Shown: piece after piece, positions 28,015 to 31,348 of the stretch
Position numbering within the stretch: position 1 is the stretch's first letter
Layout of the letters: the number at the start of each line of letters is the position of its first letter
From: Opitutia bacterium KCR 482
GTDB taxonomy: Bacteria; Verrucomicrobiota; Verrucomicrobiia; Opitutales; Intestinicryptomonadaceae
Reading direction: 5' to 3'
Length of the DNA: 32,000 nucleotides
Assembly: GCA_029269845.2 (NCBI GenBank)
Contig: CP149973.1
Coordinates: forward strand, 2,100,001 to 2,132,000
Notes under the pieces: generated by a model
What the model saw: the letters and a program-made list of their open reading frames with translations, nothing else
Databases searched by the model: none
Told to the model about the DNA's origin: nothing
Made by a program: the position numbers and the translations under genes

Positions 28015-28971
28015 ATGAAACAGAAAATCACACCGCACGAAAAATACATTTGGCAGATTTTTGACGACAACCAGCTGCGTCTCCTGCCCAAGGGCAACAA
28101 GGTAAGCTATTTCTCAAACAATAGCAGTACCCGATACATGCCGTCGAACCTCATCAACAGCGGTACGCACACAATCACCGTCCCCGAAAACCTCCCGACC
28201 GACATCTTGGCGAAGCGCGGCATTGTCTCAGGCGGTTTTGCCGAGCACACAAAGGGCTACTACCACTCGCGCAAAAACAAAAAATTTACCGACGTGCTGT
28301 GCGTCGTGCGCGGCGTGCTGTCGGTCAAATACGACGGCAAAAAGTACAAGCTCCGCAAGGGCGAGTGTCTCGTAATTCCGCCGAACAGGCTTTGCGACTC
28401 ATACATCGAAGTTCCAAAGTCCAACCTCTTTTGGATGCACTTCAAAAACAACGCCTACTGGAACGGCATTTTCGGCAGCGAAATTTTGATAAAGCCGCTC
28501 GCGCGTTTCGACGACATTCACTCGGTCATGCACGTCTATCTCAACGAAGTCTACGGCAAGCACCGCTCGATGCTGATTCTCGAATCTCTTGCCGACACGC
28601 TCGCGGAGCTTATAAAGAACGAGTTTGCGGCGAACTGCCGCTCGACGAAAAAGGAAATCGAGGACAAGCTTGCGGAAATGCTCACGGAAGTTGAGCGGAA
28701 TCCAGAGGCGGATTGGAAGTCGGCGGAGGTTGCGAGGCGGTTTTGCATTTCGATAAAACAGCTTGACGAATTTTGTCTCACTTATGCGGCGCAGACGTTT
28801 TCCAAGTTCGTGTTGAAAACAAGAATGAAGATTGCAAAGGAAATTTTGAAGTCTGATTCGCTGACTTTGGAGGAGATTGCGAAAAGAGTGGGGTATGGGA
28901 CGCCGTATTCGTTCTCGCGCGTCTTCAAAAGCTACTATGGAGTGTCGCCCCGCCATTTTAACGGCGCGTGA
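28015..28971 (+). CDS. AraC/XylS-family transcriptional regulator (cupin-like sensor plus C-terminal HTH)
   Basis: 318 aa. The C-terminal EEIAKRVGYGTPYSFSRVFKSYYGVSPRHF is the canonical AraC second HTH. The N-terminal GECLVIPPN resembles a cupin motif. Confidence 0.85.
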   Translation: MKQKITPHEKYIWQIFDDNQLRLLPKGNKVSYFSNNSSTRYMPSNLINSGTHTITVPENLPTDILAKRGIVSGGFAEHTKGYYHSRKNKKFTDVLCVVRGVLSVKYDGKKYKLRKGECLVIPPNRLCDSYIEVPKSNLFWMHFKNNAYWNGIFGSEILIKPLARFDDIHSVMHVYLNEVYGKHRSMLILESLADTLAELIKNEFAANCRSTKKEIEDKLAEMLTEVERNPEADWKSAEVARRFCISIKQLDEFCLTYAAQTFSKFVLKTRMKIAKEILKSDSLTLEEIAKRVGYGTPYSFSRVFKSYYGVSPRHFNGA

Positions 28972-29089
28972 AAGCACCAGTCTAAGGGCGTTTCACGCGC
29001 GCCCCAGACCGCTTACATACGCCAAGTATGCTACGCGCCCTGTGTCGCGCGTAAAGCCGCCCTTATACTGGCACTTTGACGCGCCTAAA
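28961..29089 (+). repeat. 129-nt long imperfect hairpin element, copy R1; it begins within the last three codons of the AraC gene
   Basis: Aligns without gaps to 29095-29223 (about 99/129 identical). It folds as a three-segment hairpin: outer ggcgcgt...acgcgcc, middle acgcgcg/cgcgcgt, apical catac-gccaa-gtatg. Confidence 0.85.
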
Positions 29090-29094
29090 ATTAC

Positions 29095-29223
29095 ACGGCG
29101 CGTGAAAGCACTTCCCTAAGGGCGTTTCCCTGTACGCCCAGACCGCTCGCGTACGTCAAGTACGCCACGCGCCCTGTTCGTACAGGAAAGCCACCCTTAT
29201 GAAAGCACTTTGACGCGCCTAAA
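29095..29223 (+). repeat. 129-nt long imperfect hairpin element, copy R2 (tandem, 5-nt spacer)
   Basis: Same architecture as R1: middle stem cctgtacg/cgtacagg, apical cgtac-gtcaa-gtacg. The differences from R1 are concentrated in paired positions and are compensatory. Confidence 0.85.
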
Positions 29224-29387
29224 TAGTGAGCGCGGAGCGCGGAAGATTTTAAAATGCGCTGGGATAAAAGTTGGGTAGGGGCGTTTTGCGAGCCGATTTA
29301 TGTTTGCGGAAATCCGCGTTTGCCATGCGCCTTGCGCATGTGTGAGAGCTATTCTCTAAGCGGCGTTTTGATGTTCTCAAATGGGTG

Positions 29388-31019
29388 TTATTTTGAGTTG
29401 TCTATGAAAATTTCGGGGTATTTTTTGATAAAGTATGCGGGGGTACAGCTCCATGCGTGGCATGCGCTGTTTACGGGGAAGAAGCCGTAAGGCGAGAGAA
29501 AATCGTTATTCGGGTCGTAGGCTTCCCAAAATGTATCGGCCCCCTTTTTTATCATCGAGCCCCAGTAGTTTATCAGATATTCTTTTGCCTCTTTTTTCAT
29601 GCCGCAGGCAATCATTGCCTCTATCAGAAAGTGTGTGGCGTAGGGTGTTCCGATTTTAACGGACTTTTCATCGGCCAACGCGTTTTTTATTGCGGTTTGC
29701 TGCATTTGTCTTGTGCCCACATTCGCAATCGTGAACCAAACTTGCGACAATATCGAGACCTGTCCGCTCGGACAAACGAAGACATTGCGTTTTTTGTCGA
29801 ACAGATTTTTCAGTGAAGCTTCCTTCATTTGCCGTTCTATCGTTTCCCAATTTTCGCTACTTTCGCCGAGCATTTCCGCAAGTTGTCTTGTTTGAGACAA
29901 TGCAAAAATCGTAGCCGCCTGCATGCAGGCTGTGGTGTCCAAGCCGTTGCGCCAGTCGAAGAACCGCCAAGCCCTTTTTTGGGTGTCGTGCATTGCGCCT
30001 TTGTTTACATATTCCAGCGACAATTCGATTTGCCTTTTCGCGACTTGCCACAAGTCCCGCGCAGTTTCGTAATCGTTTGTGTCTTTCAGGTATTCGAGAA
30101 GTGTGCTGTTAAACAGCAAACTGTACGATATGCAGTTCGATTTTTGCGGGTGGGGGAACGGCTCTTCAAAACAGCACGGGTATACGAAGCCGTTTTTGCC
30201 TGAAATTGCCGCAAACAGATACAAACATCTCTTGGTGAGCTTGAAATTCTTGAACGTTTTTGCGTTTGCGAGAGATTCCAAATACAAATCGCCAAGCCAG
30301 AGGCGTTTGTCGCGCTTGGGGCCGTCTTCGTAAACGGTTTGCATGCATTCGGAAAGCGTCTTTAACGCAACTTTGTATATGTCTGCAATTTCTTTTGACG
30401 CCGATTTCGGCAATGTATCGGGAACATTGCTTGCCGATGTTTGGGCAACAACAAACATATCGTCTATCGCAAAATCGAATCCGGAGTATCCCAAAAGTTC
30501 TATTTTTAGGTATCTGAATGAAACTCTGCGCGGGATTGTAAACGACTTGCCCATTTCGGTCAAAGTTATCGTTTCGTCTTGCATCCATGCGCGGGAGAGC
30601 GCGCCCTTCCACGGGTCTAACGGCGTATTCAGTTCGGCGGGGAGTTCGCCGAAAAAGAATTTAATTCTTACGGGCGCGTCCGCGGGAGTGTTGAAGAGTT
30701 TTGTTTTAAACGTAAAATAGCCCGTGTAATGGTCTCCGAAATCGAGCGTGATGGTCTTGATTTTTCGGAAATCCGTCTTGTACAAGTCTTCGATTTTCCG
30801 CCCGCTTTTTACGAATTTAATTCCCTGAAATGCCGAAGAATCTTTTTGCGGTTCTACGACGAATTTGGGGCGCACCGTTTTGTGGGTTAGCTCGGGTTTT
30901 AAACTTTCCGCCTTTTGCAACCAATCGTTGCGTTGCTTGCCGAAATAGTCGGCCTGTGTTTCCGAAGCATTTAAAATTCCGATACAAACAAAAGATAAGA
31001 CAATCCCAATTAGTTTCAT
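29388..31019 (-). CDS. Secreted (alpha/alpha)6 six-hairpin glycoside hydrolase, GH78 (alpha-L-rhamnosidase)-like
   Basis: 543 aa. Signal peptide MKLIGIVLSFVCIGILNA. DGPKRDKRLWLGDLYLE resembles the GH78 motif D-x-P-x-RDER-x-GW-x-GD. C-terminal WEAYDP...SACHAWSCTPAYF resembles the six-hairpin C-terminal motif. Specificity is uncertain. Confidence 0.55.
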   Translation of the reverse strand: MKLIGIVLSFVCIGILNASETQADYFGKQRNDWLQKAESLKPELTHKTVRPKFVVEPQKDSSAFQGIKFVKSGRKIEDLYKTDFRKIKTITLDFGDHYTGYFTFKTKLFNTPADAPVRIKFFFGELPAELNTPLDPWKGALSRAWMQDETITLTEMGKSFTIPRRVSFRYLKIELLGYSGFDFAIDDMFVVAQTSASNVPDTLPKSASKEIADIYKVALKTLSECMQTVYEDGPKRDKRLWLGDLYLESLANAKTFKNFKLTKRCLYLFAAISGKNGFVYPCCFEEPFPHPQKSNCISYSLLFNSTLLEYLKDTNDYETARDLWQVAKRQIELSLEYVNKGAMHDTQKRAWRFFDWRNGLDTTACMQAATIFALSQTRQLAEMLGESSENWETIERQMKEASLKNLFDKKRNVFVCPSGQVSILSQVWFTIANVGTRQMQQTAIKNALADEKSVKIGTPYATHFLIEAMIACGMKKEAKEYLINYWGSMIKKGADTFWEAYDPNNDFLSPYGFFPVNSACHAWSCTPAYFIKKYPEIFIDNSK

Positions 31020-31156
31020 ATTGACTACAAACTATCGGAAAGCGGATTGCTTTCAAGGAAATTTTCAATATCCCTAAACGCACATTTCTGGATTATAGTT
31101 GGACATTTTTGATTATACTTCAAACGGAATAAAGCGCGGTTCTCCATCGCAAAAAA

Positions 31157-31184
31157 AAAGACATTACTTGTTCGTAATGTCTTT
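31157..31184 (-). terminator. Intrinsic terminator (bidirectional-looking) downstream of the platform-protein gene
   Basis: Perfect 11-bp stem aaagacattac / gtaatgtcttt with a 6-nt loop. A 9-A run lies upstream (a T-run on the minus strand) and TT lies downstream. Confidence 0.75.
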
Positions 31185-31215
31185 TTGAGCTCGTAGTTTG
31201 AGACTGTGGGACTCG

Positions 31216-31348
31216 TGATTTGGCGTAATGATTTTGCCGCTAAAAAGGCGGCGCAAGGTTGGCGGCGGGGCGCAGCGTACTTGTGTACGTAAGCGTCGCC
31301 GAACGACCGCAGCGACGCCTTTTTAGCCCAAAAGCATTCGCCAAATCA
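31216..31348 (-). repeat. About 133-nt long imperfect hairpin element abutting the stop codon of the platform-protein gene; a diverged relative of R1/R2
   Basis: Arms tgatttggcgtaatgattttgccgctaaaaaggcg (31216-31250) and cgcctttttagcccaaaagcattcgccaaatca (31316-31348) are near-complementary. Apical hairpin cgtac-ttgt-gtacg at 31276-31289. Confidence 0.7.

Follow-up and report, generated by a model that had tools for sequence, protein, structure and literature searches.

A candidate family of long-hairpin repeats abutting stop codons in uncultured Opitutales

Most work on structured interspersed repeats has concerned Proteobacteria. Mycobacterial interspersed repetitive units (MIRUs) are polar to the flanking genes and overlap or abut the upstream stop codon. 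The attC sites of integrons have a conserved structure with terminal boxes, are folded and active as the bottom strand, and start at or over the preceding stop codon in constant orientation. The repeats called ERIC (enterobacterial repetitive intergenic consensus) and other miniature inverted-repeat transposable elements (MITEs) are co-transcribed as RNA hairpins that modulate mRNA stability (PMC3184786). Repetitive extragenic palindromes (REPs) are abundant in Opitutus terrae and lie mainly downstream of open reading frames (ORFs), where their GTAG termini often supply the stop codon (PMC3733652). Here we describe a 129-nt long-hairpin element from a 32,000-nt stretch of the Opitutia bacterium KCR 482 genome (contig CP149973.1, positions 2,100,001 to 2,132,000; hereafter the window), in which two copies, R1 and R2, stand in tandem at the end of a gene encoding an AraC-family regulator. 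We consider it probable (roughly 0.6) that R1 and R2 belong to a family of non-coding, ~129-nt long-hairpin repeats that has not been described before and is scattered over the chromosomes of one clade of uncultured Opitutales. Such a family would extend structured interspersed repeats to uncultured gut-associated Verrucomicrobiota.

The element is dispersed, was gained in one lineage and is absent from close relatives, and it resembles REPs and bacterial interspersed mosaic elements (BIMEs), REPINs and ERIC sequences in kind; its placement is stricter than that of the REP and ERIC repeats of enterobacteria. It is similar in size to ERIC (129 nt compared with ~127 bp) and, like ERIC and the MITE-like long hairpins (Correia/NEMIS, RUP and Nezha), it is an imperfect palindrome over its whole length with inverted-repeat ends. 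A non-coding, multi-copy and intergenic nature, co-transcription at gene 3′ ends as a long RNA hairpin, and the occurrence of filled and empty sites among relatives are shared features. Unlike these repeats, the element lacks a TA or other target-site duplication and therefore does not qualify, in the strict sense, as an ERIC or a MITE; nor was a parent insertion sequence with matching ends seen in the flanks of the arrays. It differs further in its single orientation to the upstream gene, always near the stop codon, in its hypervariable but compensated stems between invariant loops, in its antisense wobble pairs, and in having no sequence similarity to them. Also unlike the element, MIRUs are 40–100-bp direct repeats without a long hairpin and with small ORFs that couple translation in operons.

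Tandem hairpins at the end of the AraC gene

R1 (28961..29089, plus strand; covariance-model score 141.7 bits) and R2 (29095..29223, plus strand; 144.6 bits) are full 129-nt elements of two stem subfamilies, CAGT / ACGCGCG and TTCC / CCTGTAC, respectively, and Tandem Repeats Finder reports them as 2.0 copies of period 134 with a score of 347. The original prediction, made from the sequence of the window, held that the two copies align without gaps at about 30 differences, most of them in paired segments and preserving the pairing. This is borne out by an exact count: 30 of the 129 positions differ (77% identity), 24 of the 30 differences fall in paired columns, and 11 base pairs are altered on both sides, with pairing retained in 10. 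The predicted middle stems were likewise located, as ACGCGCG/CGCGCGT in R1 (28995–29001 with 29046–29052) and CCTGTACG/CGTACAGG in R2 (29129–29136 with 29179–29186). Each copy folds as a single long hairpin, as had been proposed (z-scores of −8.5 to −10.7 against dinucleotide shuffles, none of 200 being as good). The outer arms GGCGCGTGAAAGCAC and GCACTTTGACGCGCC are complementary at 12 of 15 positions, and all 129 nt, from ACGGCGCG at the left end to CGCGCCTAAA at the right, fold into one hairpin.

The 3′ end of the AraC gene (28015..28971, plus strand) is formed by R1, whose first 11 nt comprise the last AraC codons and the TGA stop (28969–28971), in agreement with the earlier placement of this stop inside the element. 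The element-encoded C-terminal residues are NGA (DGA in other species), followed by the stop codon; AraC orthologues without the element have different final residues and are one residue shorter. The gene is convergent with a GH78 rhamnosidase gene (29388–31019, minus strand).

R2 is followed by a spacer, module B (29224..29274, plus strand), of which 33 distinct versions were compared. It consists of a small covarying hairpin, GCGC-GGA-GCGC (29230–29240), then GAAG, a T run and GGGATAAAAGT, and was found after every main-family hairpin that has no other copy directly behind it. Beyond module B lies a degenerate, 5′-truncated copy (29275..29382, plus strand) that retains only the right arm (element positions ~24–129) and has a mean column identity of 78% to the corresponding unit in four other loci; it has no significant structure (z ~ −1.3), and the same holds for the truncated units elsewhere. 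The truncated copy ends 5 nt short of the TAA stop of the rhamnosidase gene (29388–29390, minus strand), and the entire 417-nt intergenic region is therefore made of repeats.

The AraC protein is identical on 11 public contigs. On five long contigs of the locus (L001–L005) the intergenic region is 158 nt longer than in the window (L001 11076–11238 compared with window 29090–29094), and the order is R1, module B, a right-arm-only (5′-truncated) copy, ATTAC, and R2. The right arms of R1 and of this truncated copy are nearly identical, and recombination between them accounts for the direct R1–R2 tandem as a strain-specific deletion. The ATTAC linker (29090..29094, plus strand), which equals the first bases of the ATTACA variant of module B, is the residue left at the deletion junction. 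The direct tandem originally noted is thus present in the window, but its adjacency is derived, a 158-nt deletion variant relative to five other assemblies. Five short Logan contigs with the AraC gene (L006–L010) all stop 10–13 nt past R1's left arm; assemblies are therefore broken by this repeat, or by the hairpin that it forms, and copy numbers in metagenome-assembled genomes (MAGs) are underestimates. In practical terms, the family disrupts short-read assembly and changes C-termini, the end of AraC being encoded by the element.

Family, fold and strand asymmetry

A 19-mer of the right arm, GCACTTTGACGCGCCTAAA, has exact matches at 12 loci; the three GTDB representative genomes that carry them are an uncultured Verrucomicrobiota bin, Opitutia UBA4654 and Opitutales UMGS1069. 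A search with a two-arm pattern added 10 further metagenome contigs. Together these gave 20 distinct full-length copies of 128–129 nt each. A covariance model built from the 20 copies detected diverged members at L018 3844–3972, L018 6877–7000, window 31218–31344 and L021 713–840; a search of the whole window with filters off revealed no additional copies. In sum, the loci that carry the element, ~20 of them and unlinked, come from related metagenome contigs and from no fewer than three MAGs of Opitutales (Verrucomicrobiota). Identical copies occur at non-orthologous loci and across source assemblies and species (L018, L020 and L025 share one sequence, L016a and L032 another), and the family therefore evolves in concert. 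The comparison with Rfam suggested in the original prediction returned no curated family, with no gathering-score match in the window or in 19 other loci and none at E ≤ 1 in 28900–29450. Searches of phage, plasmid and viral-contig sequences gave no match to the element.

Among the 20 main-family copies read on the gene-sense strand, 86.3% of alignment cells are paired and 18 of 49 pairs are changed on both sides (111 cells), with a covariation score of 0.284 compared with 0.088 after shuffling (reached by none of 500 shuffles) and at most 0.11 with slid partners. The opposite strand of the same copies has 98.2% of cells paired, 17 of 49 pairs double-changed and a score of 0.356 (shuffled, 0.130). 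Inclusion of three diverged copies (23 in total) gives 95.4% of cells paired, 28 of 49 pairs double-changed and a score of 0.401, compared with 0.151 for shuffled alignments (reached by none of 500) and at most 0.14 for slid partners. The variation of the stems is modular, in that the lower, middle and apical stems each occur in discrete complementary versions. The lower stem, for example, may read CAGT/ACTG, TTCC/GAAA or CGTTGATGCGG/CCGCCTGAACG, and the middle stem ACGCGCG, CCTGTAC, ACAAACG or GCGAATGG. In a distant subfamily (L018 3844) the outer stem is also compensated, from GGCGCG/CGCGCC to GGCTTG/CAAGCC. In all, 56 columns are invariant, mainly in the loops and outer arms.

Selection on structure, inferred originally from two copies, is thus evident in 20–23 independent copies (95–98% of cells paired, 17–28 of 49 pairs double-changed, and scores of 0.36–0.40 against 0.13–0.15 when shuffled), and the covariation lies above all 500 shuffles rather than at chance level. 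The stronger wording, that selection acts on structure rather than sequence, holds for the stems, but the loops and outer arms are also strongly constrained in sequence. A structure-only constraint on the stems combined with a strict sequence constraint elsewhere argues for a folded single strand that is read by a specific partner. With 28 of 49 pairs compensated and invariant loops in between, the family constitutes an unusually clean natural data set of covariation, and its covariance model could improve the annotation of these MAGs.

The two strands of the hairpin are not equivalent. Viewed on the gene-sense strand, the non-Watson–Crick cells comprise 118 A·C or C·A mismatches over 11 pair positions compared with 2 G·T pairs (980 cells), so that wobble pairs are almost exclusively antisense to the gene; 98.2% of cells are paired on the antisense strand and 86.3% on the sense strand. 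The antisense fold is the more stable in 24 of 24 copies (20 main-family and 4 diverged), with mean energies of −82.6 compared with −66.0 kcal/mol under RNA parameters and −47.8 compared with −36.3 kcal/mol under DNA parameters. As a control, the terminator hairpins of module C, a separate repeat of the same genomes described below, which are canonical, carry 1–7 sense-strand G·U pairs, and 6 of 7 gain stability when read as sense. The asymmetry therefore does not stem from mutation or repair acting across the whole genome. Selection on a sense 3′-untranslated region (3′-UTR) RNA predicts the opposite of the observed wobble pattern. The antisense-only wobble separates the strand under pairing selection from the mRNA strand, and could allow selection that serves propagation to be told apart from selection on RNA function.

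Placement at gene ends and candidate roles

The distance from the stop codon to the element ranges from −25 to +11 nt at ~17 independent loci and is mostly −1 to +2. Arrays are always co-oriented with the upstream gene, and the units within each array all point in the same direction. At three loci the stop codon of the ORF falls within the element, which offers a TGA (positions 9–11) and a TAA (23–25). The upstream genes are ordinary core or housekeeping genes in conserved synteny, encoding LptF/G, PlsX, FabH, H+-pyrophosphatase, S-adenosylhomocysteine hydrolase, dihydroorotate dehydrogenase, type II secretion system (T2SS) protein F and AraC. About half of the arrays are followed by a convergent gene and the rest by a co-directional one. 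On their left side the elements adjoin a stop-codon context, with TAA or TAG at most junctions, but three insertions inside ORF ends have neither; the right end is always CCTAAA followed by module B. Four larger gaps between stop codon and element hold 5–9-nt remnants of the left end, ACGGC, GCGCGTGA, CGGCGC and ACGTCGC (at L012 1947–1953, L014 ~2611–2619, L018 1381–1386 and L027 852–862), and L014 also holds a 34-nt 5′ fragment. Such remnants have the appearance of footprints left by previous copies at these sites. The strict polarity and the start near the stop codon suggest either that the element functions where translation finishes or that it is inserted by a mechanism able to sense the ends of ORFs.

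The diverged member in the window (31218..31344, minus strand) was detected by the covariance model only (38.7 bits; E = 3e-9 locally) and has an orthologous copy at L021 713–840. It begins 1 nt past the TGA stop of the T2SS protein F gene (31346–31348) and is co-oriented with that gene. Downstream of it, a canonical intrinsic terminator composed of an A run, a hairpin and a T run (AAAAAGACATTAC...GTAATGTCTTTTTTTTT; 31151..31186, minus strand) can be read from the sequence. The hairpin is thus located between stop codon and terminator and lies within the 3′ UTR, consistent with the position originally proposed. Both at the T2SS-F locus and in module C, a terminator is present downstream of the hairpin, and the element appears from its sequence context to be transcribed as 3′ UTR, upstream of the gene's terminator wherever one is visible. 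The long hairpin is not itself an intrinsic terminator because no T run adjoins it; a terminator scan of 28700–29600 was empty, and the T run of module B, which starts 4–5 nt after a 4-bp stem, does not form a canonical terminator. Scans for sigma-70 promoters and terminators around the array and in L018 were uninformative. The T2SS-F copy and the AraC array have opposite orientations and are 2.3 kb apart; polarity therefore follows the gene and not the replication fork, and a replication-strand basis for it is excluded.

Filled and empty sites can be compared at both loci. The element is present at the same codon in the P0002 AraC orthologues (85% identity). The AraC orthologues in L033–L038 (66–85% identity) have other final residues and short, ordinary 3′ flanks, and no copy of the family was found in the 2.6–21 kb of these sequences. 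In L036 the stop codon of the T2SS-F orthologue is followed by an ordinary terminator, and the site is empty.

In the explanation that we propose for the repeat family, the sense mRNA would carry a very stable hairpin (~−60 to −75 kcal/mol) flush with the stop codon, which would leave no unprotected single-stranded RNA past the ribosome-covered ORF and could act as a barrier to 3′-exonucleases and endonucleases or as an aid to termination, roles that have been demonstrated for REP and ERIC repeats. The near-perfect hairpin of the bottom strand would reflect the step at which the element is copied or moved, possibly through a strand-specific single-stranded DNA intermediate of the kind known for REPs and their associated transposases (RAYTs), IS200/IS605 ends and attC sites, and the A·C mismatches left in the sense RNA would be tolerated. 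On this view, copies are homogenised between loci and recombined into mosaics of hairpin, module B and truncated copy. The least strained reading of the strand asymmetry is that pairing is selected in a single-stranded intermediate of the bottom DNA strand, formed when the element is copied or moved. The best fit among the candidates first put forward is a REP/BIME-like or MITE-like palindromic element that is read as a hairpin, and the element does lie in a 3′ UTR. A small-RNA gene in its own right is unsupported, since single units are surrounded by neither a conserved promoter nor a conserved terminator and have no counterpart in Rfam. The antisense wobble bias is not what a plain sense-strand 3′-UTR stabiliser predicts.

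The likeness to REP, BIME and REPIN repeats is considerable. These too are dispersed palindromes downstream of ORFs, between unidirectional or convergent genes; their termini can supply the stop codon, and BIMEs form mosaics with other motifs. The REPIN is a ~100-nt hairpin that is recognised as single-stranded DNA by a strand-specific HUH enzyme, and REPs occur in the same bacterial order as the element. Several observations nevertheless weigh against a place for the family beside them, or against the proposed explanation. The element is about four times longer than the 20–40-nt REP unit, and it lacks a terminal GTAG or CGTC tag, GTAG being found only inside truncated units. No transposase, RAYT or integrase was present among 25 ORFs compared with Pfam (20 of which flank arrays elsewhere). 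A tblastn search of ~400 kb of partly redundant sequence, with an Escherichia coli RAYT as the query, gave no match; both results are weak negatives. Neither a target-site duplication nor a fixed target motif was found in the flanks of ~20 copies. The gene-following polarity is not predicted by replication-strand-coupled transposition. Finally, we infer from the analysis, rather than observe, both the role in mRNA 3′-end protection or termination and the mode of spread. BIMEs and REPINs alternate in orientation, whereas the arrays described here run in one direction throughout; together with the length of 129 nt and the missing GTAG tag, this shows that the element is not a REP or REPIN. No RAYT was found in the flanks. 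No insertion sequence was found in ~130 kb of flanks, and the alternative of ordinary terminal repeats belonging to an adjacent transposase finds no such transposase next to the copies.

Other explanations assign the function elsewhere. A cis-acting RNA on the sense strand, serving in the 3′ UTR as a stabiliser, a terminator helper or a ribosome-proximal regulator of translation termination, selected for its fold in the mRNA and spread by recombination or gene conversion instead of transposition, would agree with the strict co-orientation and abutment to the stop codon, the location upstream of a terminator, the strong covariation, and the association with core, probably well-expressed genes. 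In E. coli, REPs no more than 15 nt from a stop codon are reported (by Liang, Rudd and Deutscher, in Mol Cell in 2015) to lower translation through ribosome stalling and trans-translation. However, sense-strand G·U pairs in only 2 of 980 cells, with 118 A·C mismatches kept, are the reverse of selection on a sense RNA, and genuine terminators of the same genomes do have sense-strand G·U pairs; the lineage restriction, the empty orthologous sites and the identical copies at unlinked loci moreover point to spread at the DNA level. We regard this explanation as unlikely, though deserving some weight. A functional RNA from the antisense strand, either a transcript that starts in the spacer module or an insulator that halts convergent or spurious antisense transcription at the ORF end, would account for a strand that is 98.2% paired including G·U and more stable in 24 of 24 copies, and about half of the arrays do lie between convergent genes. 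It is nonetheless improbable, as the antisense strand of module B has no conserved sigma-70-like promoter, the antisense hairpin lacks a U tract behind it, co-directional genes flank some half of the arrays, and the T2SS-F hairpin shows the same asymmetry although an A-run/T-run (probably bidirectional) terminator shields it.

Much of the placement is also what would be expected of an attC-like, structure-specific recombination site, whose bottom strand is folded and recombined by a tyrosine recombinase or another structure-reading enzyme so that units resemble cassette boundaries. The element is an imperfect palindrome in the size range of attC (for example, the 123–126-nt Vibrio cholerae repeats), keeps its structure while its stems vary, folds better on the bottom strand, starts at or over a stop codon in constant orientation to the ORF, and recurs as near-identical sites within a genome, as the V. 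cholerae repeats do. Unlike attC, it ends in ACGGCGCG...CGCGCCTAAA and not in RYYYAAC...GTTRRRY boxes, it flanks core housekeeping genes in conserved synteny instead of cassettes, its tandem units enclose no ORFs, and neither an integrase among the ORFs scanned nor an attI site was seen. The absent boxes and the core genes show that it is not attC, which also excludes an integron cassette, and a recombination site of this general type is very improbable. Rather doubtful, but less so, is a structure-specific site that is read on the bottom DNA strand or on cDNA by some enzyme, which would install the element in fixed polarity where translation ends; the single-stranded or R-loop state that arises after ribosomes leave the transcript might be the target of such mobile DNA. 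If true, an enzyme targeting ORF ends would explain at once why arrays abut stop codons, why left-end footprints occur and why wobble pairs are confined to the antisense strand, and the element would be analogous to attC or HUH substrates, but on core genes. Simple patterns show just two full copies in the 32-kb window and might suggest that neither a family nor selection is involved, the repeats having arisen by ordinary tandem duplication on the spot or as inverted repeats by chance; this is already refuted by ~20 unlinked loci in several genomes, fold z-scores of −8 to −11 and covariation above all 500 shuffles.

Mosaic arrays and other repeats

Arrays at the same gene vary between assemblies (L016 compared with L024, and the window compared with L001). 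They are mosaics of full hairpin, module B, 5′-truncated copy and module C in strain-dependent combinations and, as in BIMEs, variable combinations of repeats and conserved motifs occupy extragenic, transcribed regions. The succession of a full hairpin, a spacer and a copy without positions 1 to ~25 is repeated in two subfamilies (L018 3844–4140 and the main-family arrays) whose spacers are unrelated, which suggests a preferred breakpoint near the internal CTAAG-GGCG motif. A switch, in which the left arm would pair with the right arm of the downstream truncated copy, was rejected because only ~6 of the 10 arrays have variable stems that match and because truncated units lack significant structure. 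For a possible pairing between module B and the right arm, the sequences show no informative variation.

Module C is a separate dispersed repeat of ~200–265 nt, found at 13422–13600 (plus strand) in L001–L005 and also in L011, L013, L014, L017, L020, L023, L024 and L030–L032. In L001–L005 it takes the place of the left half of the T2SS-F hairpin, which is intact in the window. A canonical terminator comes first in the module, then GCGCAAAGCGCGTCTATTTTAAT, a set of three small hairpins that are conserved, and the palindrome GCAGGCTGCAGCCTGC. The module, which often stops a short way upstream of a gene start and has no Rfam match, may represent a small-RNA gene or else a promoter or leader that is portable. 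Elsewhere in the window, the heptamer GCGTTTG is repeated four times in perfect tandem at 15932–15959 (Tandem Repeats Finder score 56).

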